DNA of 64,000 nt, taken from NCBI GenBank assembly GCA_963674755.2, contig CAXXVS010000002.1, forward strand, positions 256,001 to 320,000, read 5' to 3'. The DNA is from Desulfobacterales bacterium. Its GTDB lineage: Bacteria > Desulfobacterota > Desulfobacteria > Desulfobacterales > UBA5852. This document shows, piece by piece, positions 16,161 through 53,045 of the stretch. The translations under genes were made by a program, and so were the position numbers. Numbering within the stretch: the stretch's first letter is position 1; the number at the start of each line of letters is the position of its first letter. The notes beneath the pieces are model-generated. The model saw only the letters and a list, made by a program, of their open reading frames with translations. It did no database searches and was not told the DNA's origin.

Positions 16161-16336
16161 GCTTTTAGGGCAAGGTTTGGTATTCAGAGGCTTCCATCTG
16201 AAAGTATTGAGGAGCGCCGCGCGTCAATATACCGTCGACAATGTCATGTGCGACAGTGACAAACACTTCGATTCGGTTCTAATCCGCTGATCATTTGAGC
16301 TCCAAAAAGTCGGATCCAGGGAAAGAGGCTACGAGC

Positions 16337-16753
16337 GTGCTTGAACTTGCGATTGCAATTGCCGCGAAGGTCCACGCGGGAAAAGTGGACAAGGTCGGCG
16401 CGCCCTATATCCTCCACCCCCGTCGTGTGATGCTGAAAATGGAGACTTCCGAAGAGCAGATGGCCGCGGTTCTCCGCGATGTGGTCGAGGACAGCGACAC
16501 GACGCTCGATGATCTCAGAAACGAAGGCCTCGCGGACGCGGTTGTCGATGCGGTCGATGCCGTCACGATACGGTCCGGTGAGTTCTATGATGAATTCGTG
16601 CGGCGGGCAGCGCTCAAGCCAATCGGCAGGCGCGTGAAACTTGCCGACCTGGAGGACAACAGCGACCGGTCACGCATCGCCAATCCGACGGAAGAAAATG
16701 ACGGACGCCTTGCGAAGTACAAGCGCGCTATCCACACCATTCGTCACAACTGA
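16337..16753 (+). CDS. Small HD-domain (p)ppGpp hydrolase-like protein, HD motif altered to RD
   Basis: HAGKVDK.GAPYILHP..V...AAVLRDVVED...VKLADLEDN; the canonical LHD reads LRD. Confidence 0.8.
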   Translation: MLELAIAIAAKVHAGKVDKVGAPYILHPRRVMLKMETSEEQMAAVLRDVVEDSDTTLDDLRNEGLADAVVDAVDAVTIRSGEFYDEFVRRAALKPIGRRVKLADLEDNSDRSRIANPTEENDGRLAKYKRAIHTIRHN

Positions 16754-16790
16754 TTGACATTATGTTGTTTATTTTAGTATCAACGACAAA

Positions 16791-16865
16791 GCATGACAAC
16801 ACCAAACCCGGTGGGAACCGGGGACGTAAAGCCACGGGTCCGAAGGGGATGGCCAGGTTGCTGAC
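16791..16865 (+). promoter_or_regulatory. GEMM-I cyclic dinucleotide riboswitch, A20 (3',3'-cGAMP-type) variant
   Basis: gacaacAccaaacc-cggt-GGGA-accg-gggacgtaaagccacgggtcc...ggatggccaggttgctga matches GEMM-I architecture; TTGACA at 16754. Confidence 0.8.
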
Positions 16866-16876
16866 GGATGGATTAG

Positions 16877-16911
16877 AAACCCGGGACCCGACTGGTCCGC
16901 GGGTTTTTTTT
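16877..16911 (+). terminator. Intrinsic terminator (riboswitch expression platform)
   Basis: aaacccgggacc-cgact-ggtccgcggg followed by T8. Confidence 0.8.
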
Positions 16912-17043
16912 GTGGCATGCGCCTCAACTTCAACCTCGCCTTACAATCTCCCCGACTAAGAAGGGGCGACTGCCGCCGATGCGGCATTGCTTATTGGGCG
17001 AAAAAGTATTCCCCCACTGGTTCAGCTAAGGACTGAAAACACT

Positions 17044-18489
17044 GTGCCCCTCGACTACACCACCCTTGATCTGCTCCGTCGCAACAATCCGGCCTGGCGC
17101 CTGCTGCGGTCGGATCACGCACCGTTGGTGGTCAGCTTTTTCCAGCGGGTATTTGTCGACGCCAATGTGCGGTCGATCTCCCAGGCCGACCTGGTGGAAG
17201 CTCTCGAGGACGAACTGTTCGCCCTGCGGGAGCGCTTGGGGAATGACGCATTCCCCAAGTCGGCCCAGCAATATCTCAACGACTGGGCGGACAACGCAAA
17301 AGGGTGGCTGCGCAAGTTTTATCCCTCCGGGTCGGACGCCCCCCATTTCGACCTGACCCCCTCCACCGAGAAAGCGATTAGCTGGCTGGCGAGCCTGACC
17401 GAGCGCGCCTTTGTGGGAACGGAATCGCGCCTGCTGACCTTGTTCGAACTCCTGCGGCAGATGCGCGAGGGGACCGAGACCGATCCCGACACGCGTATTG
17501 CCGAACTGACCAGGCGGCGTGCCGAGATCGACGCGGACATCGCCAGGGTCGAAGCCGGCGAGGTTCCCGTACTGACCGACACAGCCCTCAAAGACCGTTT
17601 TCAACAGTTCCTCCAGATGGCTCGCGAGCTGCTCGCCGATTTCCGCGAGGTGGAACACAACTTTCGCCTCCTCGATCGCAAGGTCCGTGAGCGCATTGCG
17701 TTGTGGGACGGTACCAAGGGCGCATTGCTCGAAGAGATCATGGGGGAGCGGGATGCCATCGCCGATTCCGACCAGGGCAAGAGTTTTCACGCATTCTGGG
17801 ATTTTCTCATGTCCCAGCGTCGCCAGGAGGAGTTGACCCAACTTTTGGAGGACGTTTTGGATCTTCCGCCGGTGGCCGAGTTGAACCCCGACCCGCGCCT
17901 ACGTCGGGTCCACTACGACTGGCTCGAGGCCGGCGAGGTCACCCAGCGCACGGTGGCGCGTTTGTCCCAGCAGCAGCGGCGGTTTCTCGACGACAAGGCC
18001 TGGCTGGAGAACCGGCGTATCATGGACATCCTGCACGGCATCGAAGCCAAATCCCTGGAGGTCCGCGAAACCGCGCCTTCCGGCGATTTCATGCCGTTGG
18101 ACGACAGCGCGGTCACCGTCGATCTTCCCCTGGAGCGGCCCCTGTTCCGTCCGCCGGTCCGCCCGCAGATTGCCGACGTGGCGCTGGAACCAGGGGAGGG
18201 CGAGGTCGATGCCGCAGCCCTGTTCGCCCAGGTGGTGGTGGACCGGGAAGCGCTCGTGCGGCACCTCCGCCAGGCACTGCAGTCCCGCTCCCAGGTCAGT
18301 CTCGAAGAGCTGGTGGCAGCACGCCCCCTACGCCAGGGCTTGGCGGAGCTGATCGCCTACCTGCAGTTGGCCGGCGAATGGCCCCACGCCGTGGTGGACG
18401 AGCAAACCATTACGCGGATCCAATGGGAAATGGAAGGGGACACGGTGCGGCGGGCTTCCCTGCCACGGATCATCTTTGTGAGGGATTAA
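17044..18489 (+). CDS. jetA: Wadjet JetA (DUF3375)
   Basis: PAWRLLRSDHAPLV.SF...GWLRKFY...FVGTESRL...SDQGKSF.AFWDFL; first of four-gene Wadjet order. Confidence 0.9.
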   Translation: MPLDYTTLDLLRRNNPAWRLLRSDHAPLVVSFFQRVFVDANVRSISQADLVEALEDELFALRERLGNDAFPKSAQQYLNDWADNAKGWLRKFYPSGSDAPHFDLTPSTEKAISWLASLTERAFVGTESRLLTLFELLRQMREGTETDPDTRIAELTRRRAEIDADIARVEAGEVPVLTDTALKDRFQQFLQMARELLADFREVEHNFRLLDRKVRERIALWDGTKGALLEEIMGERDAIADSDQGKSFHAFWDFLMSQRRQEELTQLLEDVLDLPPVAELNPDPRLRRVHYDWLEAGEVTQRTVARLSQQQRRFLDDKAWLENRRIMDILHGIEAKSLEVRETAPSGDFMPLDDSAVTVDLPLERPLFRPPVRPQIADVALEPGEGEVDAAALFAQVVVDREALVRHLRQALQSRSQVSLEELVAARPLRQGLAELIAYLQLAGEWPHAVVDEQTITRIQWEMEGDTVRRASLPRIIFVRD

Positions 18490-18491
18490 AA

Positions 18492-19121
18492 ATGGACGAT
18501 TTGGAACCCGCAGCGCAATCCCCTTCAAACGATCACAACCTCTCGGAGGTGGTTGTCCCCCTGCTCAAGGGCGTGCTCTACATGGCGGACAACCCGGCCC
18601 AGTGGAACGCCCTGCTGGACCTGCAGTTTCGCGTGCGCGACTATGTCGCCGTGCTCGGGCTGGAGCTGATGCTGGACGAGGCCGAAGGCTACGCCTACCT
18701 GCGGTCCTTCCCGGAGGAAGAGGGCCCCGACAGCCTCAAACGGCCGCGGCTGGTGGCCCGCCGGCAACTCTCCTTTCCGGTCAGCCTGCTGTTGGCCCTG
18801 TTGCGCAAGAAGCTGGCGGAGTTCGACGCGCGGGGCGGCGACACCCGCTTGATCCTCACGCGCGAGGAGATCGTGGAACTGATCCGGGTGTATCTGCCCG
18901 AGGGCACCAACGAAACCCGTTTGATCGACCAGGTCGGGACCCACCTGAACAAGGTCGCCGACCTCGGCTTTATCCGCCGCCTGCGGGGCCAGTCCAACAC
19001 GTTCGAGGTCCGCCGCATCCTCAAGGCCTTTGTGGATGCCCAGTGGCTGGCGGAATTCGATCAGCGCCTGGCCGATTACCGGCAGCACCTGACACAGACC
19101 GGGGAGGGGAACGATGGCTGA
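18492..19121 (+). CDS. jetB: Wadjet JetB (DUF4194)
   Basis: [24 protein letters not shown]...[13 protein letters not shown]...[13 protein letters not shown]. Confidence 0.9.
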
Positions 19122-22100
19122 AATCCTGGAACTCTCCTTCGTGGACAACGACCAGCTGGCCGGTTTTCGCCTGCAGCGGTTGGAAGTCTACAACTGGGGG
19201 ACCTTCGACCGGAAGGTGTGGACCCTGCACCTCAACGGCCGTAACGCCCTCCTGACCGGCGACATTGGCTCGGGCAAGTCCACCCTGGTGGATGCCCTCA
19301 CCACGCTGCTGGTGCCCCAGCAGCGCATCACCTACAACAAGGCGGCCGGGGCCGGGGCCCGCGAACGCACCCTGCGCTCATACGTCATGGGCCACTACAA
19401 GTCCGAACGCAACGAGGTCGGCGGCAGCGCCAAACCGGTGGCCCTGCGCGACCCCAACCATTACGCCGTCATCCTGGGGGTGTTCCACAACGCGGGCTAC
19501 CTCAAGACCGTGACCCTGGCCCAGGTCTTCTGGATCAAGGATCTCCAGGGGCAGCCCGCCCGCTTCTACACGGCCTGCGAGCGTGAGCTTTCCATCGCCG
19601 AGGATTTCGCCCAATTCGGAACCGACATCGTCCAGCTGCGCAAGCGCCTGCGGTCTTCAGGCGTCACGGTCTGGGACAGTTTCCCGCCTTACGCGGCCTG
19701 GTTCCGGCGGCGCTTCGGGATCGACAACAACCAGGCCCTGGAGCTCTTCAACCAGACCGTGTCCCTCAAATCCGTGGGCAACCTCACCGATTTCGTGCGC
19801 ACCCACATGCTGGAGCCCTTTGACGTGGCCCCCCGCATCAAGGCCCTGATCGAGCACTTCGACGATCTCAACCAGGCCCACAAGGCGGTCCTCAAGGCCC
19901 GGCAGCAGATCGAGAAGCTCACCCCGCTGGTGGCCGACTGCGATCGTCACGCCGAGCTGGCGGCTTCCGCCGACGAACTGCGGGCCTGCCGGGAAGCTCT
20001 GCAGGCCTGGTTTGCGGGATTGAAATTGGCGTTGCTGGAACAACGGCTGGGCGTCCTGAAGGAAAAGATCGGCCGACACCAGACCAAAATTGAAAGTCTG
20101 TCAGAGCGCAGGCATTCGTTGCAACTCAAAGAACGTCACTTGCGGAAGAACATCACCGAGAACGGCGGTGACCGCATCGAGCGCATCAGAGAGGAAATCC
20201 GCGCCAAGGAAGCCGAGCAACAGCGCAGAAGACGCAAAGCCGACCGCTATGCCGAATTGATCTCAATCCTGGATCTGGTGCCCGCCGAGACAGAAGAGGT
20301 TTTCCTTTCCCACATGCAACGCTGCGACGTCTTGCGCGAGCAAACGGAGCAGCGCGAGGCGCAGCTTCAAAACGACCTGAATGAAAGAAGGGTGGCTTTA
20401 TCCCAAAAGCGCAGCGAGCACGAGCAGCTGCAGGCGGAAATCGCCGGCCTCAAGGCCCGGCGTAGCAACATTGACGAAAAGCAGGTGGCCATGCGCCGCA
20501 TGATCTGCAGCGCCCTCGATCTTCCCGAAGACGACATGCCCTTTGCCGGTGAGCTGATCCAGGTGCGCGAGGAGGAGCGCGACTGGGAGGGGGCCATCGA
20601 GCGCCTGATGCGGAATTTCGGTCTGTCGCTGCTGGTGCCGGACGCGCACTACCCCCGGGTGGCCGCCTGGGTGGACAAAACGCACCTCAAGGGGCGCTTG
20701 GTCTATTTCCGCGTGCGCCCGTCGCGTAAGGCTGCCCCGTCGTCCCTGCGGCCCGATGCCCTGGGCCGTAGGATCGCCGTCAAACCCGATTCGGCTTATT
20801 ACGACTGGCTGGAAGGGGAGATCGCCAAACGCTTCGACGTGGCCTGCTGTGACACCCAGGACCAGTTTCGGCGCGAGACCCGGGCCATCACCCGGGCCGG
20901 CCAGATTAAGATGCCGGGCGAGCGCCACGAAAAGGACGACCGGCACCGGATCGATGACCGCAGCCGCTACGTGTTGGGCTGGAACAACACGGCCAAGATT
21001 GCCGTGCTGGAAAAGAAGGCTCGGCAGCTGGAAAAGCTTATTGGTGAAATGGATGGCCTCATCGCTGAGCGGGAGCGCGAGCAGCAGACCCTCAAGGATC
21101 GTCTGACCACCCTTTTTCAATTGGGCGAGCACCGCGATTTCCGGGAAATGGACTGGCGGTCCCTGGTGGCAGAGATCGCCGACCTGCAGAACGAGAAGCA
21201 GCGCCTGGAGACGGCTTCCGACACCCTGCAGACGCTGAACGCCGAACTCGAAAGGCCGAGAAAGCCGCTGCCGAAAACGAACAGCAGCTCGACCAGGTCA
21301 AGGGTCAGTGCTCCCGGCTGGAGCAGAGAAAAAGCGACACGGAAACCATGTGTCAGGAGGTGCGTGTTGTGCTGGAAGACACCGATCCGGCCCACGAGGC
21401 CTATTTCGAGCGCTTGGCGGCCTTGCGCGAGGAGGCCCTGGACGGACCGGCCCTCACGGTGGAATCCTGCGACCCGGCCGAACGCAAGCTCCGCGACTGG
21501 CTGCAGGCCAAAATCGACGCCGAAGACAAAAAACTCGCCCGGCTGCGCGACAAGATCATCGAGGCCATGCACGGCTTCCGGACCGCCTACCCCCTGGAAA
21601 CCCAGGAGGTCGACGCCGCGGTCGAGGCGGCGGGCGAATACCGGGAAATGCTGCAGCAGCTCAAGGCCGACGACCTGCCGCGCTTCGAGGCGCGCTTCAA
21701 GGAACTGCTCAACGAGAACACCATCCGCGAGGTGGCCAACTTCCAGTCCCAGCTGGCGCGGGAGCGCGAGACCATCAAGGAGCGCATCGCGCACATCAAC
21801 ACCTCGCTCTCCCAGATCGACTACAACCCGGGCCGCTACATCGTGCTGGAGGCGCAGCCCGGCACCGACGCCGACATCCGGGATTTTCAAAGCGAGCTGC
21901 GGGCCTGCACCGAAGGCGCGCTCACCGGTTCGGACGACGCCCAGTACTCCGAGGCCAAGTTCCTGCAGGTGCGCCGGATCATCGAAAAATTCCGCGGCCG
22001 CGAAGGCCAGTCCGAACAGGACCGCCGCTGGACCGCCAAGGTGACCGACGTGCGCAACTGGTTCGTCTTCGCCGCCAGCGAGCGCTGGCGCGAGGACGGC

Positions 22101-22478
22101 AGCGAGTACGAGCACTACACCGACTCGGGCGGCAAGTCCGGCGGGCAGAAGGAGAAGCTGGCCTACACCGTGCTGGCGGCCAGCCTGGCCTACCAGTTCG
22201 GCCTGGAGTGGGGCGAGGTGCGCTCGCGCTCCTTCCGGTTCGTGGCCATCGACGAGGCCTTCGGCCGCGGCTCGGACGAGTCGGCCCACTACGGGCTGCA
22301 GCTTTTCAACCAGTTGAACCTGCAGCTGTTGATCGTCACCCCCCTGCAGAAGATCCACGTCATCGAACCGTACGTTTCCGGCGTGGGGTTCGTACACAGT
22401 GAAGACGGCAAAACCGCCAGCCTGCGCAACCTGACCATCGAAGAGTACCGGGAGGAAAAGCGGAGGCAGCAGACGTGA
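19114..22478 (+). pseudogene. jetC: Wadjet JetC SMC-like ATPase, split by a 1-bp deletion at ~21251-21253 (real or sequencing error)
   Basis: [15 protein letters not shown] (Walker A) in ORF 19114; KSGGQ signature and IDEAF (Walker B) in the frame ending 22478; adding one A restores ELEKAEKAA. Confidence 0.88.
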
Positions 22479-23665
22479 ACTGGACCCGGCCCGGCGACCT
22501 TCGTAAAATGGTTCAACGCCTGTGGGACCGGGGGGCCCTGCTGGCAAGCCTGGCCGGGGGCGAGTCCCTTTTCCCCAAACGGTTGCCGCTCAAGGGGCCT
22601 GCCTCCACCGAACTCACCCAAAACTTTGACGAGGTGCGCCGCTGGATCGCCCAGCTCGACCGCCAGGCCAAGCACTACCGCATCGTTTGGCGCCACGTGA
22701 ACCACCGGGTTCTGGGCGCCAATGACCTGCCGAGTGAAGTCTGGATCGACACCCTGGACGACGCCCTGGCCTTGGTCGACCGGCGCCGGGCGGCCGAACG
22801 GTTTACCGTGTTGGTGGCCGTGACCCAAGAGCGGCTGCCCGATCTCGATCCCTGGCTCCGCAAACGGCCTTTGCGCGCGCTGGCCCTGGCGGACGACTGG
22901 CCTCTCCTGCTCGACATCGTCACCTGGATGCGCCGACACCCCCGTCCAGGTTTGTATCTGCGCCAGGTGGACATCCCCGGCGTCCACAGCAAGTTCATCG
23001 AGGGGCACCGGTCCGTCCTGATGGAGCTGTTCGACCTGGTATTGCCCGAGGAAGTGGTGGACAGGGAGTCCCGCGGCGTGTCTGGGTTCGGCCGGCGCTA
23101 CGGGTTTCAGGACAAGCCGGTGCGGGTGCGGTTTCGTATTCTGGACGACGCTTGCGCGGTCTTTGCCACTGGCACGGACCAGGACATCGCGGTCACCCAC
23201 GACACCTTCGCCGGCCATGATCCGCCGGTCGACACCGTCTTTATCACTGAAAACGAGATCAACTTCCTGGCCTTTCCTCGGGCTGCGGGGTGTATGGTCG
23301 TTTTCGGCGCGGGCTACGGGTTCGACATGTTATCCCGGGCCCGCTGGTTGCACGACCGGCGCCTCTTTTACTGGGGCGACATCGACACCCACGGGTTCGC
23401 CATCCTCGATCAACTGCGCGGTCAATTCCCACATGCCCGGTCTTTCCTCATGGACCGTGATACCCTCATGGCCCACAAGAGCCTCTGGGGGCGAGAACCG
23501 CGACAGGAAACCCAGGATCTGCCGCGGTTGGACCGCGAGGAGCAAGCGCTGTTTGACGATCTCCGCTACAACCGATTGACCGACCAATTGCGGTTCGAAC
23601 AGGAAAGGGTGGGGTTTGACTGGGTCAAAAACAGGGTGGCGGATTTGACCGGAATTCCTTCGTGA
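22475..23665 (+). CDS. jetD: Wadjet JetD Toprim nuclease (DUF3322+DUF2220)
   Basis: YLRQVDIPGVHSKFIE, FITENEINF, YWGDIDTHGF, RFEQE. Confidence 0.92.
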   Translation: MNWTRPGDLRKMVQRLWDRGALLASLAGGESLFPKRLPLKGPASTELTQNFDEVRRWIAQLDRQAKHYRIVWRHVNHRVLGANDLPSEVWIDTLDDALALVDRRRAAERFTVLVAVTQERLPDLDPWLRKRPLRALALADDWPLLLDIVTWMRRHPRPGLYLRQVDIPGVHSKFIEGHRSVLMELFDLVLPEEVVDRESRGVSGFGRRYGFQDKPVRVRFRILDDACAVFATGTDQDIAVTHDTFAGHDPPVDTVFITENEINFLAFPRAAGCMVVFGAGYGFDMLSRARWLHDRRLFYWGDIDTHGFAILDQLRGQFPHARSFLMDRDTLMAHKSLWGREPRQETQDLPRLDREEQALFDDLRYNRLTDQLRFEQERVGFDWVKNRVADLTGIPS

Positions 23666-23832: not shown

Positions 23833-25119
23833 ATGAAGTGTACGATCCAAATATTTCTTGACGACCGTTGGCAAACGGCCGCGGTGTTCGAGCCTGATCC
23901 GCAGACCCTGGACCGCGGCATTGCCGGAGGGGGGCGGCTGCAATACGACACCGACTATGCCATCGGCCATTTGGGTGAGAAAGCTGCTGAGTTGGTGCCC
24001 GGGCAACAGGTCGGCTTCGAACTGTTCCGGTTCGACCAATGGCCGCCGTTCCTGGTCGATGTGATGCCCTCGGGTGCCGGACGCCGGGCCTGGCTCCGGC
24101 GTATGCAGGTGGAAAGGGACGGCCCGCACGCGGATTGGCACTTGCTCACCCGGGGCGCCGGCAGTCCGCCGGGCCATCTGCGGATTGCCGAAGCGGTCCA
24201 GCCGCCGCCTCCGGACCATTTCAAAATCGGGTTTCCCCGCCGGGACATCGTCGAACAAGCGGAACGGTTCCTGGATTACGCCGAAGAACGGGGGGCTCAT
24301 GTGGCCGGGGCCTCCAGCGTGCAGGGGGAGGCGCCCAAGTATTTACTGGTCGAGGACCACGCCGGCATGTTTCACGCCGAGGGCGCGCTGACGGACGACA
24401 GGATCAAGGCTTTCTGGCTGGTCAAATTTCCCCGCGGGCGTCGCAGCGAGGCGCGCAACGAACAGGTCCTGCGCAACGAGGCGGCCTATCTGGAAGTGGC
24501 CCGCCACTTCGGCATTCGCACCGCAAGCCCTCTGCGATACGAACACGGGGCGCTTTTCGTGCCGCGCTTCGACCGGCGGGTGGCGGACGGCCGCGTGGAA
24601 CGCCTGGGTATGCACAGCCTATATGCCGTGGCCGGCCAATCGGGCTATGGCGCGGCGGTGTCCAATGACACCTTCTGCCGTGCCCTCGCAGCGGTCGCCA
24701 CCGATCCTGCCCGGGAATTACGGGAGTATATCCGCCGCGACATCCTCAACCTGGCCCTGCGCAACACCGACAACCACGGCCGCAATTCGGCCGTTCTGCG
24801 AAGCGGTGACCAGATCGCCCTTTCCCCTCTATTCGATTTTGCGCCGATGTTCCTGGACCCGGAGGGGATCGGCCGTGTCAGCCGCTGGGAAGACGAAGAA
24901 CCCGGCCGCCAGCCGGATTGGCGGGCTGTCATCGAAAAATTCGAAGATATTCTCCCGCCTGCGGATGCGATGCTGTGGTTGGCCGGATTAGGGGCGAAGG
25001 TTCGCCACCTTCCCGCAGCGATGCGGGATTGCCGGGTCGACGAGGATATCATCGAACGGCTTTCCCGCTGGATCGGGGAAGTGGCCGCCGGACTGATCGA
25101 TGCCGGACGCCGGGTTTAG
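23833..25119 (+). CDS. hipA: HipA-family kinase toxin
   Basis: SSVQGEAPK, WLVKFP, LFVPRFDR, NTDNHGRN, LSPLFDF. Confidence 0.9.
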   Translation: MKCTIQIFLDDRWQTAAVFEPDPQTLDRGIAGGGRLQYDTDYAIGHLGEKAAELVPGQQVGFELFRFDQWPPFLVDVMPSGAGRRAWLRRMQVERDGPHADWHLLTRGAGSPPGHLRIAEAVQPPPPDHFKIGFPRRDIVEQAERFLDYAEERGAHVAGASSVQGEAPKYLLVEDHAGMFHAEGALTDDRIKAFWLVKFPRGRRSEARNEQVLRNEAAYLEVARHFGIRTASPLRYEHGALFVPRFDRRVADGRVERLGMHSLYAVAGQSGYGAAVSNDTFCRALAAVATDPARELREYIRRDILNLALRNTDNHGRNSAVLRSGDQIALSPLFDFAPMFLDPEGIGRVSRWEDEEPGRQPDWRAVIEKFEDILPPADAMLWLAGLGAKVRHLPAAMRDCRVDEDIIERLSRWIGEVAAGLIDAGRRV

Positions 25120-25136
25120 AAAGACAGGTCGTCATC

Positions 25137-25433
25137 ATGAAACGCCCATCACCGGACGAAATGACCCGCATGAAGGAGAACCTCTATCGCGACCTCGCCC
25201 GAGGTGCCGTCGATATCCGGGAGGCCTCGCGCCGCATGCGCCGGATCCTGGGAATGAGCCAGAAAGATTACGCCCGCAAAGTGGCTGGGATCGCGCCCCG
25301 CATCCTGGCCGAGTTTGAAAACGGCTCCGGCAATCCCACCCTGGCCACCCTGGAGAAGATCGCCACCCCTTTCGGGCTGAAGGTCACCTTCCTGCCACCC
25401 GCGTCCTGGCGAATGGAAAAAACGGATGGTTGA
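25137..25433 (+). CDS. XRE/HipB-like HTH antitoxin (downstream of the toxin)
   Basis: MRRILGMSQKDYA...LAEFENGSGNPTLATLEKIA.PFGL. Confidence 0.85.
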   Translation: MKRPSPDEMTRMKENLYRDLARGAVDIREASRRMRRILGMSQKDYARKVAGIAPRILAEFENGSGNPTLATLEKIATPFGLKVTFLPPASWRMEKTDG

Positions 25434-25455
25434 GGCGCTTTGTGTGCGGTTGGTT

Positions 25456-25552
25456 GGCCACCAAGTGGCCGTTGGTCGTGACAACCTTCGTCCCGCAAAG
25501 CGGGACAACCCACGCCCCGGGAAACGAGGCAACCTGCGCCGGCGCAGCCGGC
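25456..25552. repeat. Multi-hairpin array, copy A
   Basis: ggccac/gtggcc, gtcccgc/gcgggac, gccccg/cgaggc, gccggc/gccggc stems with short A/C-rich linkers; homologous to 26115-26260. Confidence 0.7.
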
Positions 25553-25657
25553 ATGTAGATGGCTGCGGCCGCATCGGATCAAATTGACAACGGTTATCGA
25601 TTTGAAATACTTTAGGCATCGAAGGTAATCGGGCACTAATTGAGAGGCAATCGTGTC

Positions 25658-25954
25658 ATGGCACAGATTGACATTCCCAGAGAGCAAATTGCCGATTTCT
25701 GCCGGCGGAACCGCATTCGTCGACTGGCACTGTTCGGCTCGGTGCTGCACGGGAACGCCGGCGCTGACAGCGATGTGGACGTGCTGGTCGAGTTCGAGCC
25801 CGGTGTGCGCGTCGGTCTCAGGTTTTTCGACATTCAAGAAGAGTTGTCCGACCTCTTCGGCCGCAAGGTCGATTTAAACACGCCCAATTTCCTAAGCCGT
25901 TATTTCCGCGATCAGGTGCTGAAAGAAGCCGAGGATCTCTATGCCCACGCCTGA
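25658..25954 (+). CDS. MNT nucleotidyltransferase antitoxin (MntA-like)
   Basis: LALFGSVLHG...SDVDVLVEF...LFGRKVDL. Confidence 0.9.
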   Translation: MAQIDIPREQIADFCRRNRIRRLALFGSVLHGNAGADSDVDVLVEFEPGVRVGLRFFDIQEELSDLFGRKVDLNTPNFLSRYFRDQVLKEAEDLYAHA

Positions 25955-26067
25955 GGAATCGACTCATCCACGGCTATGACGCTGTGGATTTTGGCATTCT
26001 CTGGGATATCCTCAAATATGACCTGCCTCCTCTCATCCAGCGACTGGATGAGATCCTGCAGTCCTAA
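25941..26067 (+). pseudogene. HEPN (DUF86/HepT) toxin remnant with large internal deletion
   Basis: ATG overlapping the MNT end, then out-of-frame LRNRLIHGYDAVDFGILWDILKYDLPPL (R-X4-H motif). Confidence 0.8.
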
Positions 26068-26114
26068 AAATTGATCCGGTCCCTGTGGGTTGGACGCTCC
26101 GCACCCGCAAGTAT

Positions 26115-26260
26115 GGGCACTCCGTGCCCGTTGGTCGTAACAACCAACGTCCCGCGTCGCGGGACCACAAACGCTCGCAAAGCGAGCACACTTACGCCAG
26201 CGCAGCTGGTAAACCCACCCCCCGCACTGCGGGGCAAACCCACGTCCCGTTTAGCGGGAC
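26115..26260. repeat. Multi-hairpin array, copy B
   Basis: Consecutive 6-7 bp stems with mostly 3-nt loops at ~23-nt period, linkers such as aaacccac. Confidence 0.7.
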
Positions 26261-26751
26261 ATCTTTTAAATCATTGGACTTTTCCGATAATTTATGGGAA
26301 AAAATCCTCAAGTTTTTCGGCGTAGGCACCGATTCCCTTGTGGTTTCGCATGTTGAATTTGTCGGCAGGCTGCAGCAGCCTGCCGACCCGTATCCTGCCG
26401 ACTCGCAGGAACCTCCTTGAGTCCTATTCATGACGCCAGCGGTTCAATCAAAATTGGATCACTCTCGCTCACGCCATCAAGGCCCCAAGTGGTCTTTCCC
26501 GCCTCATCCCGCGCCTATAACAACAAAGCTAAACCAAAAACCAGATCCTCACCCAAAGACACAGGGAATCTGGGACAGCCTTTAGCGAGAAAGTTCTGGG
26601 ATATTGCGATGGTTAAGGTTCAGGCAAATGGATTGACATAAAAACATAGACGTCCCTCTTCTTGGCCCCTCTTCTTGGCCAAGAATAACCCGTTAGGCTC
26701 CTTTGACGATGTCGGCAAAATATAACTGGGAACTGGAATTAAAAAGCGTTT

Positions 26752-27956
26752 ATGCAACAAGACGTCTCGGAAAAACCACAACGCGCGAACGGACTTAAAG
26801 CGCAGCTGTTCCTCATCCTTTTCCCGACATCGATTTTTTTCCTCAACTTTCTGTCGCGGATCATCCTCGCACCGCTATTGCCAACCGTCGAACTGGATCT
26901 TGGCATCAGCCACGGCGCGGCCGGTTCGCTTTTTCTCTTAATCTCGGTCGGATATTTCGCGGCTCTATTGGCATCCGGTTTTGTTTCGGCCCGTTTTCTT
27001 CATCGACGGACCATTGTGCTTTCGACCGTATCTTTGGGGGTCGCCTTTATCTCACCGCGTTCAGCCATGGGCTTTTCGGAATGCGGATCGGCATGATCCT
27101 CCTGGGAATGGCCGCGGGCCTCTATCTCCCTTCGGGAATAGCGTCGATTACCCACTTGGTTGACGTCCGGCACTGGGGAAAGGCGCTGGCCATCCATGAA
27201 ATGGCCCCCAACCTGGCCTTCGTGGCGGCGCCCCTGCTTGCAGAGTTCATGCTGGGATGGATTTCGTGGCGGAATGTCCTGATCGTCCTCGGCAGCCTGA
27301 CGGTGGCGGCATCGATCGCTTTTTCCAGGTTCGGTCAGGGGGGCGACTTTCCGGGCCGCGCTCCCGGATTCGGGGCCTGCAGAACGCTTTTCAAACTGCC
27401 GGCCTTTTGGATCATGACGGTGCTTTTTATGCTGGGAATCAGCTCCACTTTGGGAATCTACACGATGCTGCCGCTTTTTCTGGTAACGACGCACGGCATG
27501 GATCACAGCCTGGCAAACGAACTCATCGGCCTGTCCCGCGTGCTGAGCATCGCCATGGTCCTGCTGGCCGGCGTTGTCAACGATCGATTGGGGCCCAAAC
27601 GCACCTTGATGGCGGTATTGCTTTTGTCCGGCACGATGACGATCCTGCTCGGATTAGTGACGAAGTCCTGGGTGGTTCTCATTGTTTTCCTGCAGCCTCT
27701 CATGGCCGTTAGCTTTTTCCCGCCCGCTTTTGCGCTTCTGTCTGCCGTCGGTCCACCCGATGTGCGCAATGTTAGCGTTTCACTGGCCGTGCCAGCGGGG
27801 TTTATGGTCGGTGGCGGCGTCATGCCGCTGTTTATCGGCTTTATGGGCGACAGGGGATGCTTTCCCGGCGGCATTGTCATCGTGGGGGGCTTGATTTTGG
27901 CCGGTGCCTTTCTGTCCGCATTTCTAAAGTCTCACCAGGAAAACGGGGGGCACTAA
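26752..27956 (+). pseudogene. MFS transporter split by a 1-bp deletion near 27050
   Basis: Hydrophobic MFS halves in ORFs 26752 and 27081 (NDRLGPK motif); atc-ctc reads atctc. Confidence 0.8.
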
Positions 27957-28085
27957 TCTTCCGGCGCCTGGCACAGTCAACGATCAGGACCATCTGCCTG
28001 CCCATCCGCTCAATTCGTACAAGCCGGAGCAGCCGCTAAGGGCAAGCGGACAAACGAAAACGCCGAGGAAGTTATCGAATTCACG

Positions 28086-28562
28086 GTGCCGTGGCTCGAG
28101 GGGCGCTGCACCAATGAGGGATCCTTTGTATGGCTTTCTGACAATGTGGGCAGTCCAATCAATGTGGACACAGGTTGTAAGAGTGCCCCTTCGAATGCAT
28201 CCGAGGACGAGTTGGATATCGAGCTATATCACCACGAGTACGGCGATTTTCAGCGCCTGAAAAGGAAGAAGTGGCATTGGCAGTTTCTGGCGTCGGGTGA
28301 GGTCACATGGAACATGGCCAGTACGACTTACTCTACTTTTTACATCGGCAGCACCCGTGACAACCGGTTCTGGTCGCTGCAGGACCTTTCCCACAACCGG
28401 AAGATCGTCGCCATTGCCGAGGTGAACAACTTTCAGTCGCTCCACGTCCCCGAGATCGCCCTGGCGTTGCTGAGGACCTATTCCGGCGGCGACGATTTTC
28501 TGATTCGACAGATGACAGAGTTCGGCAAAATACCATTCCCGATTCCAGGTATGGGACACTGA
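28086..28562 (+). CDS. Hypothetical protein
   Basis: 158-aa ORF, no recognised motif, start uncertain. Confidence 0.4.
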   Translation: MPWLEGRCTNEGSFVWLSDNVGSPINVDTGCKSAPSNASEDELDIELYHHEYGDFQRLKRKKWHWQFLASGEVTWNMASTTYSTFYIGSTRDNRFWSLQDLSHNRKIVAIAEVNNFQSLHVPEIALALLRTYSGGDDFLIRQMTEFGKIPFPIPGMGH

Positions 28563-28818
28563 TGAGCGCTGATGAACACGGATAAAACCGAAAGTTTATG
28601 AGGCTTCGCCTAAACGGCCAACGGCCTACAGCCTAACCCCCTTTTTAGCCACGGATGGACACAGATACACACGGATACCCTTAGATAAGCGTACAGATCC
28701 AGAATCGAGTACCCAGGAACCAGCATCCAGCAACGCACGAAACTAAACTTAGGGTTACGAAGAATGCGTCATCGTTCAACCACTTGCACAAAACTAAACC
28801 ATCGGTTACTATTTGTGC

Positions 28819-29400
28819 ATGAGCGATTCAACCAAAAAGCCAAACTGGGATCTCCTGTTTGAGACGGCGAACGCCCAAGAGGGCTACTTCACCACCAGGC
28901 AAGCTGCCGAGGCAGGTTTCTCGTCGCAGCTGCTTCTCAAGCACATCCGCGCGGGTCGCGTCACACGTACACGCCGGGGCATCTATAGGCTCGTCCACTT
29001 CCCTGCGGGTGAGCACGAAGAACTGGTCGTCGCTTGGCTCTGGTCGGACAGGGCCGGCGTCGTTTCGCACCAGACCGCGCTGTCGCTCCACGGGCTCTCG
29101 GACGTGCTGCCGGCGCATGTCCATCTGACCCTGCCGCGAGCTTGGCAAAGCCGCCGACTCAGGATTCCTGACGGGGTCGTGGTCCACCATGCTGACGTGC
29201 CATCGAACGACCGGTCCTGGTTCGGCGCGGTGCCGACCACCAACCCGCGCCGCACGCTGAACGACTGCGCTCACGAGGAACTGTCGCCCGATCTGCTGCG
29301 CCAAGCAGCTCAGCAAGCCATTCGTCGGGGCCTCGTTACCACGGCAGAGATCGGCGAGGTCGAAGAGGCGCTGCGCGTTTTCGGAGGGTTCGGCATATGA
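28819..29400 (+). CDS. abiEi: Type IV TA antitoxin AbiEi family
   Basis: QEGYFTTRQA..AG...RGIYRL...VVSHQTAL.LHGL...VPTTNP.RTL.D. Confidence 0.85.
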   Translation: MSDSTKKPNWDLLFETANAQEGYFTTRQAAEAGFSSQLLLKHIRAGRVTRTRRGIYRLVHFPAGEHEELVVAWLWSDRAGVVSHQTALSLHGLSDVLPAHVHLTLPRAWQSRRLRIPDGVVVHHADVPSNDRSWFGAVPTTNPRRTLNDCAHEELSPDLLRQAAQQAIRRGLVTTAEIGEVEEALRVFGGFGI

Positions 29401-30314
29401 CGACCCGCACCTATTCTTCACCCGCGGCCTTCAAACAGGCGCTTGAACAGCGCCTACGCTCGGCGACAAATACGGGTGTAGAGTTCGCCCGCAAGCGGCA
29501 GCTGCTCGTGTTTGATCGCTTCCTCGCGCGTATCGTCGCCACGCTCGGTGACACCGCCACACTTAAAGGTGGGCTCGTGCTGGAGCTTCGCCTCAAGCGG
29601 GCGCGCACCACGAAGGACGTCGACCTGAGGTTGATGGACTTTCAGGGTGGCATCCTTGAGAGGTTGCAGGAAGCGGGCAGACAAGACCTCGGCGACTTCA
29701 TGACCTTCGAGGTCGGCCCGGACAACGAACACCCGGAGATTGTGAACGATGGGTTGCAGTACGATGGCCTTCGATTCCGTGCTGAGTGCCGGCTCGCCGG
29801 GAAGGTATACGGCCAGCCCTTCGGCGTTGACGTTGCGTTTGGTGATCCGATCCTTGGAGAGCCCGAGGTGGTGGTGGCGGAAGACGTGTTGGCGTTCGCC
29901 GGCATCGCGCCACCCAGACTGCGCCTGTACCCGGTTGAGTCCCACATCGCCGAAAAGCTGCATGCGTACACCATGCCCCGCAGTCGTCCCAATTCGCGGG
30001 TGAAGGATCTACCGGACATCGCCTTATTGGCCTCCGTGCGTGACATCGACAGCATGACATTGCGCACCGCCATCGAACGGACGTTCAAACACCGGGCGAC
30101 ACACCCAGTGCCAGCGTCGGCGCCCGCGCCTTCGGAAGCTTGGGCGCCTGTCTATGCTCGAATGGCAGCGAACGACAGGCTCAAGTGGCAGACACTGGAT
30201 GAGCTGACCCGGGCCGTTCAAACTTTTCTCGACCCGCTGCTCGCTGGGGAGATCGGGAAATGGGAAGCGGAGGCGTGGGCCTGGTCCGCCGTTCAGGCGA
30301 ACAATCCGAAATAA
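29397..30314 (+). CDS. abiEii: Type IV TA toxin AbiEii nucleotidyltransferase
   Basis: LKGG..L.LR...ARTTKDVD, AEKLHA, SRVKDLPD; ATGA overlap with abiEi. Confidence 0.9.
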   Translation: MTTRTYSSPAAFKQALEQRLRSATNTGVEFARKRQLLVFDRFLARIVATLGDTATLKGGLVLELRLKRARTTKDVDLRLMDFQGGILERLQEAGRQDLGDFMTFEVGPDNEHPEIVNDGLQYDGLRFRAECRLAGKVYGQPFGVDVAFGDPILGEPEVVVAEDVLAFAGIAPPRLRLYPVESHIAEKLHAYTMPRSRPNSRVKDLPDIALLASVRDIDSMTLRTAIERTFKHRATHPVPASAPAPSEAWAPVYARMAANDRLKWQTLDELTRAVQTFLDPLLAGEIGKWEAEAWAWSAVQANNPK

Positions 30315-45258: not shown

Positions 45259-45444
45259 CTAAGTCCTCCTTTCTATGATAATATATAACGTATCACTAGT
45301 GTCTGGCTAAAATGTTTTTAAAATTGCCAAAAGTTGCTGTAATTAAACATAAAAGCATCACTTTCTAGTGGGCAACCTCTTGATTTCGAAACGATAGCCC
45401 CATAAATTACTTCGCAGAGCGAAATTGTGAGGGGAGGATATCCA

Positions 45445-45540
45445 AGGCAACTCGGCTTTCTCCCATAGGTCCGTGGCTATCGCACCTGAGATGCTCGTGG
45501 TTTTCCGTCCCCTCCTCACAGCAGGTTTGGCTTCTTCTTG
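45445..45540 (-). promoter_or_regulatory. GEMM-I riboswitch-like element (G20, c-di-GMP type), atypical P3
   Basis: Minus strand aaGccaaacctgct-gtga-ggaggggacggaaaaccacg...agccgagttgcc upstream of the PEP-CTERM gene. Confidence 0.65.
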
Positions 45541-45567
45541 CTCAAGAAATATTGTATGGAAACAGCT

Positions 45568-51968: not shown

Positions 51969-53045
51969 ATGGCATGTATTGCTAAAAGAAGAGGCCGCTA
52001 CGTTATTGATTTCTACGACAACCAAGGAAAACGGAGGTGGAAAACCCTGCCGCAAGGAACAACAAAAAAGAAAGCCAGGGAGGTTCTCAGGGATATCGAG
52101 GACCAATTGTCGAAAGGGACGTATCTGACCGACAAAAAGATACCCACCTTTAAAGAGGTCGCGGAGGATTGGCTCGTTTACAAAAAGCCGAACGTAAGGG
52201 CTTCCACTTGGTCAGTTTATGAAGGCCACGTTCGCAATCATTTTAATGATGTTGCTGACATTAAGGTGAACCGCATCACTGTCACCAAGGTTGAGCATTT
52301 TTTAGCTGACCGGCAAAACGAGAAAATGAACCTCGGTACGCTTCGAAAAATTATGATCAGCTTTGGCCAGATCATGGCCTACGCGGTGCGTCACAAATAC
52401 ATCCATCATAACCCCGTTCGCGAGATAGAACGTCCACGAGGCAACGGGAACATCGACACCATTAAGATCCGAGTCCTGAACCCTGCGGAAATTCAACGCA
52501 TGCTCGACGCTGTTGAGGACCTTCGGCATCTGACCCTTTTCCGGTTGGCTGTTATGAGTGGAGCTCGGCAGGGCGAGCTTCTTGGGCTCAAATGGTCTGA
52601 CGTCCTTTGGGACAGCAAGCAAATTCATATCCAGAGGACTTTCAACAATGGCGGTTGGTACGAGCCCAAGTCCGCCTCGTCGAACCGACGCATTGATTTA
52701 GGACCAGCGATGATGGCCGAATTGAAACGTTGGAAAAAGGAATGCCCCAAGAGCAAGCTTAATTTGGTTTTTCCTAACACCGTTGGCAATGTGATGTGCG
52801 ACAGCAGCATGCTGCGAAAACACTTTCATCCTGCATTGAAGGCCGCGAACCTCCCCAGAATAAGGTTCCATGACCTCAGACATACCTATGCAAGCCTGCT
52901 GATAGAGCAGGGGGAAAATATCAAATACATTCAGACCCAACTCGGGCATTCCAGTCCGTCGGTCACTCTGGATGTCTATGCCCACCTTTTGAAGCCATCC
53001 AATCAACAGGCGGCCCGACGTCTCGAAAAATCCATTTTTTCGTAG
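51969..53045 (+). CDS. int: Tyrosine recombinase / site-specific integrase
   Basis: SGARQGELLGLKW, FHDLRHTYAS, LGHSS..VTLDVYAH; adjacent to att. Confidence 0.95.
   Translation: MACIAKRRGRYVIDFYDNQGKRRWKTLPQGTTKKKAREVLRDIEDQLSKGTYLTDKKIPTFKEVAEDWLVYKKPNVRASTWSVYEGHVRNHFNDVADIKVNRITVTKVEHFLADRQNEKMNLGTLRKIMISFGQIMAYAVRHKYIHHNPVREIERPRGNGNIDTIKIRVLNPAEIQRMLDAVEDLRHLTLFRLAVMSGARQGELLGLKWSDVLWDSKQIHIQRTFNNGGWYEPKSASSNRRIDLGPAMMAELKRWKKECPKSKLNLVFPNTVGNVMCDSSMLRKHFHPALKAANLPRIRFHDLRHTYASLLIEQGENIKYIQTQLGHSSPSVTLDVYAHLLKPSNQQAARRLEKSIFS

Follow-up and report, generated by a model that had tools for sequence, protein, structure and literature searches.

Type I Wadjet systems are anti-plasmid machines encoded by jetABCD, in which the Glu and the DxD motif of the Toprim domain of the JetD nuclease have catalytic roles. 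In the literature searched, no description of the control of Wadjet expression was found, nor was a riboswitch-controlled Wadjet (searched for also as DUF3375 and MksBEF), though subscription papers and supplementary riboswitch-gene tables, which lay outside the search, might list one. The riboswitch mentioned in the available part of PMC12287153 is a synthetic theophylline switch, and the portion of PMC12375680 that was accessible holds no link between Wadjet and cyclic di-GMP (c-di-GMP). Among riboswitches of the GEMM-I class, the roles of the pocket residues G20, A47 and C92 have been described (PMC5888326, available in part), and in the Cd1 OFF switch of Clostridioides difficile aptamer and terminator are present together, in competition with an antiterminator (PMC9262584, accessible sections). 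Here, we describe a type I Wadjet operon that lies behind a GEMM-I leader in a 64,000-nucleotide (nt) stretch of DNA from a Desulfobacterales bacterium (GenBank assembly GCA_963674755.2, contig CAXXVS010000002.1, positions 256,001 to 320,000; the whole of this stretch is called the window, and positions are counted within it). We find that a cyclic-dinucleotide riboswitch leader and a Wadjet operon are inherited together, an arrangement that is real and apparently undescribed, and an initial annotation of this DNA, made from its letters, likewise knew of no such case. With modest confidence, we favour the view that the leader arose as a c-di-GMP OFF switch on Wadjet and has been desensitised in several lineages, including that of the window strain.

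The leader and the operon are encoded on the forward strand, and the parts listed in the initial annotation are all present: a TTGACA box at 16754, an aptamer, a terminator and, 132 nt past the terminator end, the start of jetA. The probable promoter (16754–16783) is predicted from a −35 box, TTGACA (16754–16759), and a −10 box, TATCAA (16778–16783), separated by a spacer of 18; with an alternative −10, TAGTAT, the spacer would be only 15. A generic sigma-70 scan of the window did not call this site as a promoter; it is likely a real one despite the missed call, because a TTGACA/TCGACA-N17-18-TAYCAA site is kept in 6/6 full-length leaders and a looser TTGAC-N16-18-TA motif (about 0.01 expected per 125 nt) lies 5′ of six of the 18 GEMM-I aptamers in the same genome, the jet one included. 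The aptamer (16791–16865) is the sole Rfam match at gathering score in the window (RF01051, c-di-GMP-I; 45.2 bits against a gathering score of 35, E 1.3e-5), which bears out the aptamer first recognised by eye. When Vc2-type position numbers are carried over through the Rfam alignment, its pocket bases are A20 (16801), A47 (16828) and C92 (16861); the A noted earlier at position 20 is thus correct, and the G20/A47/C92 pocket of RF01051 is found here with A in place of G20. The top clan model for the orthologues is RF03167 (c-di-GMP-I-GGC), whose name we take to mean G at position 47, G47 itself coming from the Rfam consensus line, yet all six copies have A47. The predicted intrinsic terminator (16877–16911) is a hairpin with an 8-T tail that folds at −20.8 kcal/mol (z −3.1; 1/200 shuffles equally good), its outer stem has 92.9% of cells paired across six copies, and outer stem and T tail are retained in all seven leaders. 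As had been noticed at the outset, GGACCCG (16884–16890) in the terminator 5′ arm is complementary to CGGGTCC (16835–16841), the P3 5′ strand of the aptamer; a random genomic 9-mer reaches seven such pairs in 0.4% of draws.

Judged by its distribution among sequenced relatives, the juxtaposition of riboswitch and jetA is inherited and not a matter of chance. From 125 jetA loci gathered, 15 with less than 300 nt of upstream DNA were removed, leaving 110, or 95 distinct loci, with the pairs L040/L140, L039/L142 and L094/L132 each counted once. The leader is present in 7/9 distinct loci at 80% protein identity or more and in 0/86 below 80%, so that the comparison with related genomes suggested initially speaks against a chance neighbour. 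Besides the window, the carriers comprise G001 from the same genus, G013 and G014 from two further genera, and the metagenome loci L092, L130 and L094/L132. The DNA upstream of the leader differs among loci, and in G014 homology begins at the −35 box itself, which argues that promoter, aptamer, terminator and operon move as a unit. In G000 (the genome of the window), G001 and G013 the cassette sits at a tRNA-Leu/secG integration hotspot. The clade is narrow, comprising seven loci, of which the four in genomes all fall in one family: the jetA start was matched in 4/16 other genomes of that family, leader matches occur in 3/401 genomes of the class, all within the family, and no convincing leader match came from another 11 upstream stretches at the order level (best E 0.2). 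Viral contigs gave 0 matches to the leader and plasmid records none, 30 records matching jetA only; GEMM-I is absent from the candidate loci L203 and L204, and across the genome, metagenome, viral and plasmid sets searched the leader was never found ahead of another gene. The aptamer of G013 (L089) is interrupted by an assembly gap that leaves it without a 5′ end and with position 20 unreadable, and was therefore kept out of the six-sequence analyses and counted only as a leader carrier. In P2 and P3, this aptamer resembles the A20 aptamer L207 (G013:C266), with an N gap and without the 5′ pocket strand, which may point to an aptamer swap or a mis-scaffold. Two other leaders also depart from the common plan: that of G001 (L088) has a 147-nt repeat element between terminator and jetA, with seven related copies in G000, and at L138 only a short CCCCGATTAAG piece beside the ribosome site is kept, with no riboswitch, as if the leader had been replaced.

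Within the leader, the aptamer core has changed more slowly than its surroundings, with p-distances of 0.114 in the core, 0.234 in the spacer and 0.274 at jetA fourfold sites, and with 16/61 variable columns in the core vs 70/132 in the spacer (Fisher p 0.0006, the kin not being independent). All five readable orthologues have G20, together with A47 and C92, and A20 is private to the window among the six readable copies. The pairs of P2 are 100% paired across copies. The number of broken pairs, out of 18 core pairs, is 0 in L092 and G014, 2 in the window and L130, 3 in G001 and 4 in L094. L092, whose jetA groups with that of the window (support 0.98), has 0 core changes on its branch vs 5.4 expected (P 0.004, a rough estimate from kin that are not independent), and its core differs from that of the window at four positions only, all of them changed privately in the window (16801, 16827, 16850 and 16855): G20A, G46U, which breaks the pair C21–G46, a C-to-U change giving a new G.U wobble at T16850, and a G-to-A change giving a C.A mismatch in P3. 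The single mismatched P2-base pair of the initial annotation is therefore real (C16802.T16827, that is C21.U46); the second mismatch, C.A16855 in P3, and the wobble at T16850 had been overlooked. The upper P2 (6 bp) of the window copy is whole, with a GGGA loop, and two of its 18 core pairs (C21.U46 and the P3 C.A) are non-canonical.

In the proposed model, the ancestor of this Wadjet clade would have acquired a promoter–GEMM-I–terminator leader of a kind common in the family, and the unit would then have been inherited together. The intact G20 form, represented by L092 and G014, would act like Cd1: without ligand, the P3 5′ strand (16835–16841 in the window) and the aptamer 3′ strand (16854–16859) would pair with the terminator 5′ arm in a nested antiterminator of 11–12 bp and jetABCD would be transcribed, and with c-di-GMP bound, P3 would be locked, the terminator would form and Wadjet would be shut off. 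Folding models, which are equilibrium models of a kinetic switch, allow the nested antiterminator in 6/6 readable copies while P2 stays. Its outer half joins the P3 5′ strand to GG(A/G/C)CCC, with 6–7 contiguous pairs in 6/6 copies in one of two registers (16884–16890 being the partner in the window), and its inner half joins the aptamer 3′ strand to AACCCG (16878–16883), with 5–6 of 6 pairs in 6/6 copies and one mismatch in the window; the same inner layout recurs in L011, a paralogue from the same genome. When the aptamer is locked in the models, the terminator outer stem becomes more probable, going from 0.66 to 0.98 in L092, 0.55 to 1.0 in G014, 0.16 to 0.94 in G001 and 0.51 to 0.99 in L130; the value for L094, 0.0 before locking, reaches just 0.14. 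The OFF switch put forward initially from the complementarity of P3 and terminator arm thus fits the architecture, and the helix can form in 6/6 copies; that helix makes up only half of the nested antiterminator, and it shows no covariation. In four of the six readable copies, the window among them, mostly lineage-specific and uncompensated changes would have weakened the aptamer, with the antiterminator still formable, so that these copies would have become desensitised. The window A20 would be one of the weakening changes and no specialisation for another ligand, and the window strain has, in addition, very recently lost JetC (see below). Because locking costs 11.3 kcal/mol in the window vs 3.3–5.7 kcal/mol in the intact copies (L092 and G014), the window copy is, according to these models, probably a poor responder to ligand.

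Several observations weigh against a c-di-GMP OFF switch. The aptamer is intact in only 2/6 copies, two close loci have no leader (L138, at 92% identity over 119 amino acids (aa), and G015, at 82%), and, in the MAFFT register, there is no compensatory change in aptamer or antiterminator, with covariation scores equal to those of shuffles. Two compensatory antiterminator changes in L094 appear only when its G-run is shifted by one base from that register and were not counted. In the full-length RNA of the window, the probability of the terminator is 1.0 with or without the aptamer locked, and, on this folding, the copy may be fixed in the OFF state and not in the ON state. Downstream of the terminator, about 115 nt before jetA, the leaders of 5/6 relatives hold a weak TTGACC-N18-(G/T)ATTAA-like motif that resembles an internal promoter (regular-expression search); the window gives no match to the expression and has at 16930–16959 a degenerate sequence, TCAACC...GACTAA, that is possibly its remnant. 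The private changes of jetA on the window branch are 23 synonymous and 4 non-synonymous, with no relaxed selection. Finally, the genome encodes a PAS-like, Hypr-like GGDEF protein, taken up below.

In the main rival explanation, Wadjet captured a promoter bearing a riboswitch, constitutive read-through or an internal promoter supplies the jetABCD transcript, and the aptamer is slowly decaying and has no control over defence. It would account for the broken pairs in 4/6 aptamers, for the window branch, where 4 core changes stand against 7.2 expected under neutrality (P 0.15, as rough an estimate as that for L092 and from the same non-independent kin), for the internal motif and for the repeat element tolerated in the G001 leader, and it has a precedent in C. 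difficile, where second promoters past cdi1_4 and cdi1_5 drive antitoxin RNAs (PMC6563280, in its available part). We nevertheless think it rather unlikely. The aptamer core has diverged about half as fast as the spacer, the aptamers of L092 and G014 are intact although, in each comparison with the window, about 21% of jetA fourfold sites differ, the terminator outer stem and T tail are kept in 7/7 leaders, and most copies of the putative internal promoter have a poor −10. Nor do the counts of synonymous and non-synonymous changes in jetA support a general decay of the operon as a whole, though the upstream HD-domain gene is damaged. Since jetA shows no relaxed selection, general decay alone does not account for the changes in the window aptamer, which could represent retuning; as read from these sequences, the overall pattern fits repeated loss of sensitivity, with retuning possible too.

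The initial annotation had proposed such a change of ligand, namely that A20 marks a switch for 3′,3′-cyclic GMP-AMP (hereafter cGAMP), a messenger shared with cyclic oligonucleotide-based antiphage signalling systems (CBASS). In its present form, this explanation holds that G20A retuned the window switch to 3′,3′-cGAMP produced by a Hypr GGDEF enzyme, or to both ligands, so that cGAMP gates Wadjet. A20 is indeed found with A47 and C92 intact, jetA is under purifying selection on the window branch, and the same genome has an otherwise well-formed A20 aptamer, L013 (G000:C1:333200-333284). L013, L205 and L207 are all well-formed GEMM-I aptamers with A20 from this family, and these three are better candidates for cGAMP switches than the jet copy. 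A possible synthase is also at hand: among 21 Pfam GGDEF matches in the genome, at least 13 with the canonical Asp, L179 (G000 C3:919276-919746) has Ser at the position of GacA Ser348, an AGDEF motif and GacA (6d9m) as its best PDB match (Hypr signature residues as given in the accessible part of PMC6456294). The Hypr-like signature recurs in 10/11 family loci inspected, the form VD...GHLxGS being conserved across the family, and, on sequence grounds, GGDEF proteins of the L179 type are a candidate subfamily of cGAMP synthases outside Geobacter.

Against this stand the private nature of A20 among the six readable copies and its company, since it comes with C21.U46 and the P3 C.A, both pair-breaking. 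An A20 conserved on an intact scaffold, as in GEMM-Ib, is seen in 0/5 readable orthologues, and in the window the adjacent pair is broken. Pattern counts over 17 genomes of the family give G20 62 and A20 3, and 16/18 GEMM-I aptamers of the same genome have G20. A20 alone does not signify cGAMP, because Vc2 G20A is merely bispecific (dissociation constants of 53 nM for c-di-GMP and 120 nM for cGAMP) and the natural A20 switch Cbe 1-2 prefers c-di-GMP (both from the available part of PMC6140456). In the Hypr-like enzyme, Val stands in place of the substrate-binding Asn339 of GacA, and jetC is broken in the window strain. As for an immune messenger, four profiles for CBASS cyclases, the cGAS/DncV-like nucleotidyltransferases (SMODS, NF041078, NF041117 and PF21654), have no match in G000 (97% complete), a result that does not establish absence, since two of the profiles, NF041078 and PF21654, gave no signal on their controls; the proposed link to an immune messenger therefore lacks support. 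Retuning of the window switch to cGAMP is improbable in our estimation, and the cGAMP and CBASS framing as a whole is unlikely. We are equally doubtful of the broader version, whose c-di-GMP half taken alone is the explanation favoured above, and in which the Wadjet of the clade is gated by a cyclic-dinucleotide riboswitch that lineages retune, with c-di-GMP as the ligand of G20 copies and 3′,3′-cGAMP from the Hypr-like GGDEF as that of the window strain; if true, it would mean that a defence is switched by a lifestyle signal and can be rewired between second messengers through one base. The least probable explanation, that the main role of the terminator is to end transcripts of a GEMM gene since lost, with jetA a co-inherited neighbour, or that ligand turns expression ON through a fold outside the models, could appeal to the many alternative folds opened by the P2 5′ strand and the terminator 5′ arm being identical 8-mers and to the secreted or envelope-type proteins that, as we read them, follow the other GEMM-I aptamers of this genome with an identifiable downstream open reading frame (ORF), and has against it that no locus with the leader before another gene was found in the sets searched and that, in contrast to the ON-type paralogue L010 of the same genome, there is no overlap between terminator and aptamer 3′ strand.

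The operon itself follows the order jetA-jetB-jetC-jetD with type I PADLOC profiles throughout, as in type I Wadjet, and is the only one in the genome (tblastn). The MukF-like jetA (17044–18489; JetA1, E 1.5e-224; Pfam DUF3375) has a GTG start after AAGGA, the MukE-like jetB (18492–19121; JetB1, E 2e-93; DUF4194) was scanned within a longer ORF (17703–19121), and jetD (22475–23665; JetD1, E 1e-152) has PDB matches to MksG (8b7f) and JetD (8q72 and 7til) and the motifs of a type I JetD, with the Glu in TENEIN at 258 and the DxD in WGDID at 300. The gene for JetC (19114–22478; JetC1), a structural maintenance of chromosomes (SMC) ATPase, is split by a 1-nt deletion near 21250 into two halves, the first with Walker A and the second with the signature and Walker B, and its frame is unbroken in 4/4 relatives examined. 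The frameshift, reported initially for the sequence as written, is also found in contigs of runs X1 and X5, with zero differences and no gaps across the site; X1 is perhaps the source sample of the window, hence not independent, and X5 is from the same study as X1. Both runs also have A16801. Run X3, which belongs to another study, has a contig of 99.6% identity with one extra A that restores the frame, along with 22 other differences in 5.4 kb. An assembly error was therefore rejected: since the break is present in X1 and X5 and absent from the near-identical X3 strain, it is real and very recent in the window strain. The first half of JetC (19114–21250) is about 84% identical to those of G001 and G014 and the second half about 94%, which hints at a mosaic or at faster change.

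Directly upstream of the leader, on the forward strand, a damaged ORF (16295–16753), whose stop abuts the −35 box, has a weak match to Pfam HD_4, below the cut-off; compared with the intact copy at L092 and a paralogue in the genome, its HD motif reads RD and it has no ATG at the homologous start. The upstream DNA varies among relatives, and this ORF is not a fixed part of the cassette; an intact paralogue, 85% identical, lies near C2:1286000. Downstream, a small defence island (23833–30314) begins with an ORF for a HipA-like kinase directly after jetD (shared with G001) and further holds a split major facilitator superfamily (MFS) gene (26752–27956) and an AbiEi/AbiEii type IV toxin–antitoxin (TA) pair (28813–30314). 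Beyond it, a 22.4-kb element of low GC (30674–53182) is integrated at tRNA-Leu(GAG) beside secG, bordered by 59-nt direct repeats (98% identical) and containing an integrase-like ORF (51969–53045), named from its sequence; the jet cassette lies outside it. Within this element, a sub-threshold GEMM-I aptamer (45443–45541 on the reverse strand; 33 bits, G20, long P3) lies upstream of an ORF of 241 aa whose start resembles a signal peptide.

If the riboswitch works, it would connect c-di-GMP, the usual signal of the sessile or biofilm state, directly and with no protein in between to a machine that acts against plasmids, and, if the switch is of the OFF type, it would leave cells in that state open to plasmid uptake. 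At under 300 nt the leader is short, and nature offers intact and damaged alleles side by side, though the clade is narrow and the switch is weakened in most of its copies. Compared with type I Wadjet JetABCD as known (E. coli 8q72, JetD 7til, MksG 8b7f), the window operon has the same gene order, the PADLOC profiles JetA1 to JetD1 and the SMC and Toprim motifs, and differs in its riboswitch leader and its frameshifted jetC. With the GEMM-Ib cGAMP riboswitches of Geobacter (Gs1761, Gm0970, pilM) and Vc2 G20A, the window copy shares A20 and a gene for a putative, Hypr-like synthase in the genome, whereas its A20 is private, a pair beside the pocket is broken, the orthologues have G20 and A20 occurs in 3/65 pattern matches in the family. 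Cd1 of C. difficile belongs to the same aptamer class and, like the jet leader, has a separate downstream terminator whose 5′ arm is able to pair with an aptamer strand; unlike Cd1, the jet leader precedes a defence operon in place of flagellar genes, has a weak P1 and shows broken pairs in 4/6 copies, and its OFF role is predicted from folding models. By analogy, the nearest precedent for a riboswitch-linked module of the defence type comes from prophages of C. difficile, whose type I TA pairs cdi1_4/RCd11 and cdi1_5/RCd12 resemble the jet operon in that GEMM-I precedes a module of genome conflict carried on mobile DNA; as far as the accessible part of PMC6563280 goes, the riboswitch there precedes an antitoxin RNA and is bypassed by internal promoters, whereas the jet leader precedes a four-gene anti-plasmid operon.

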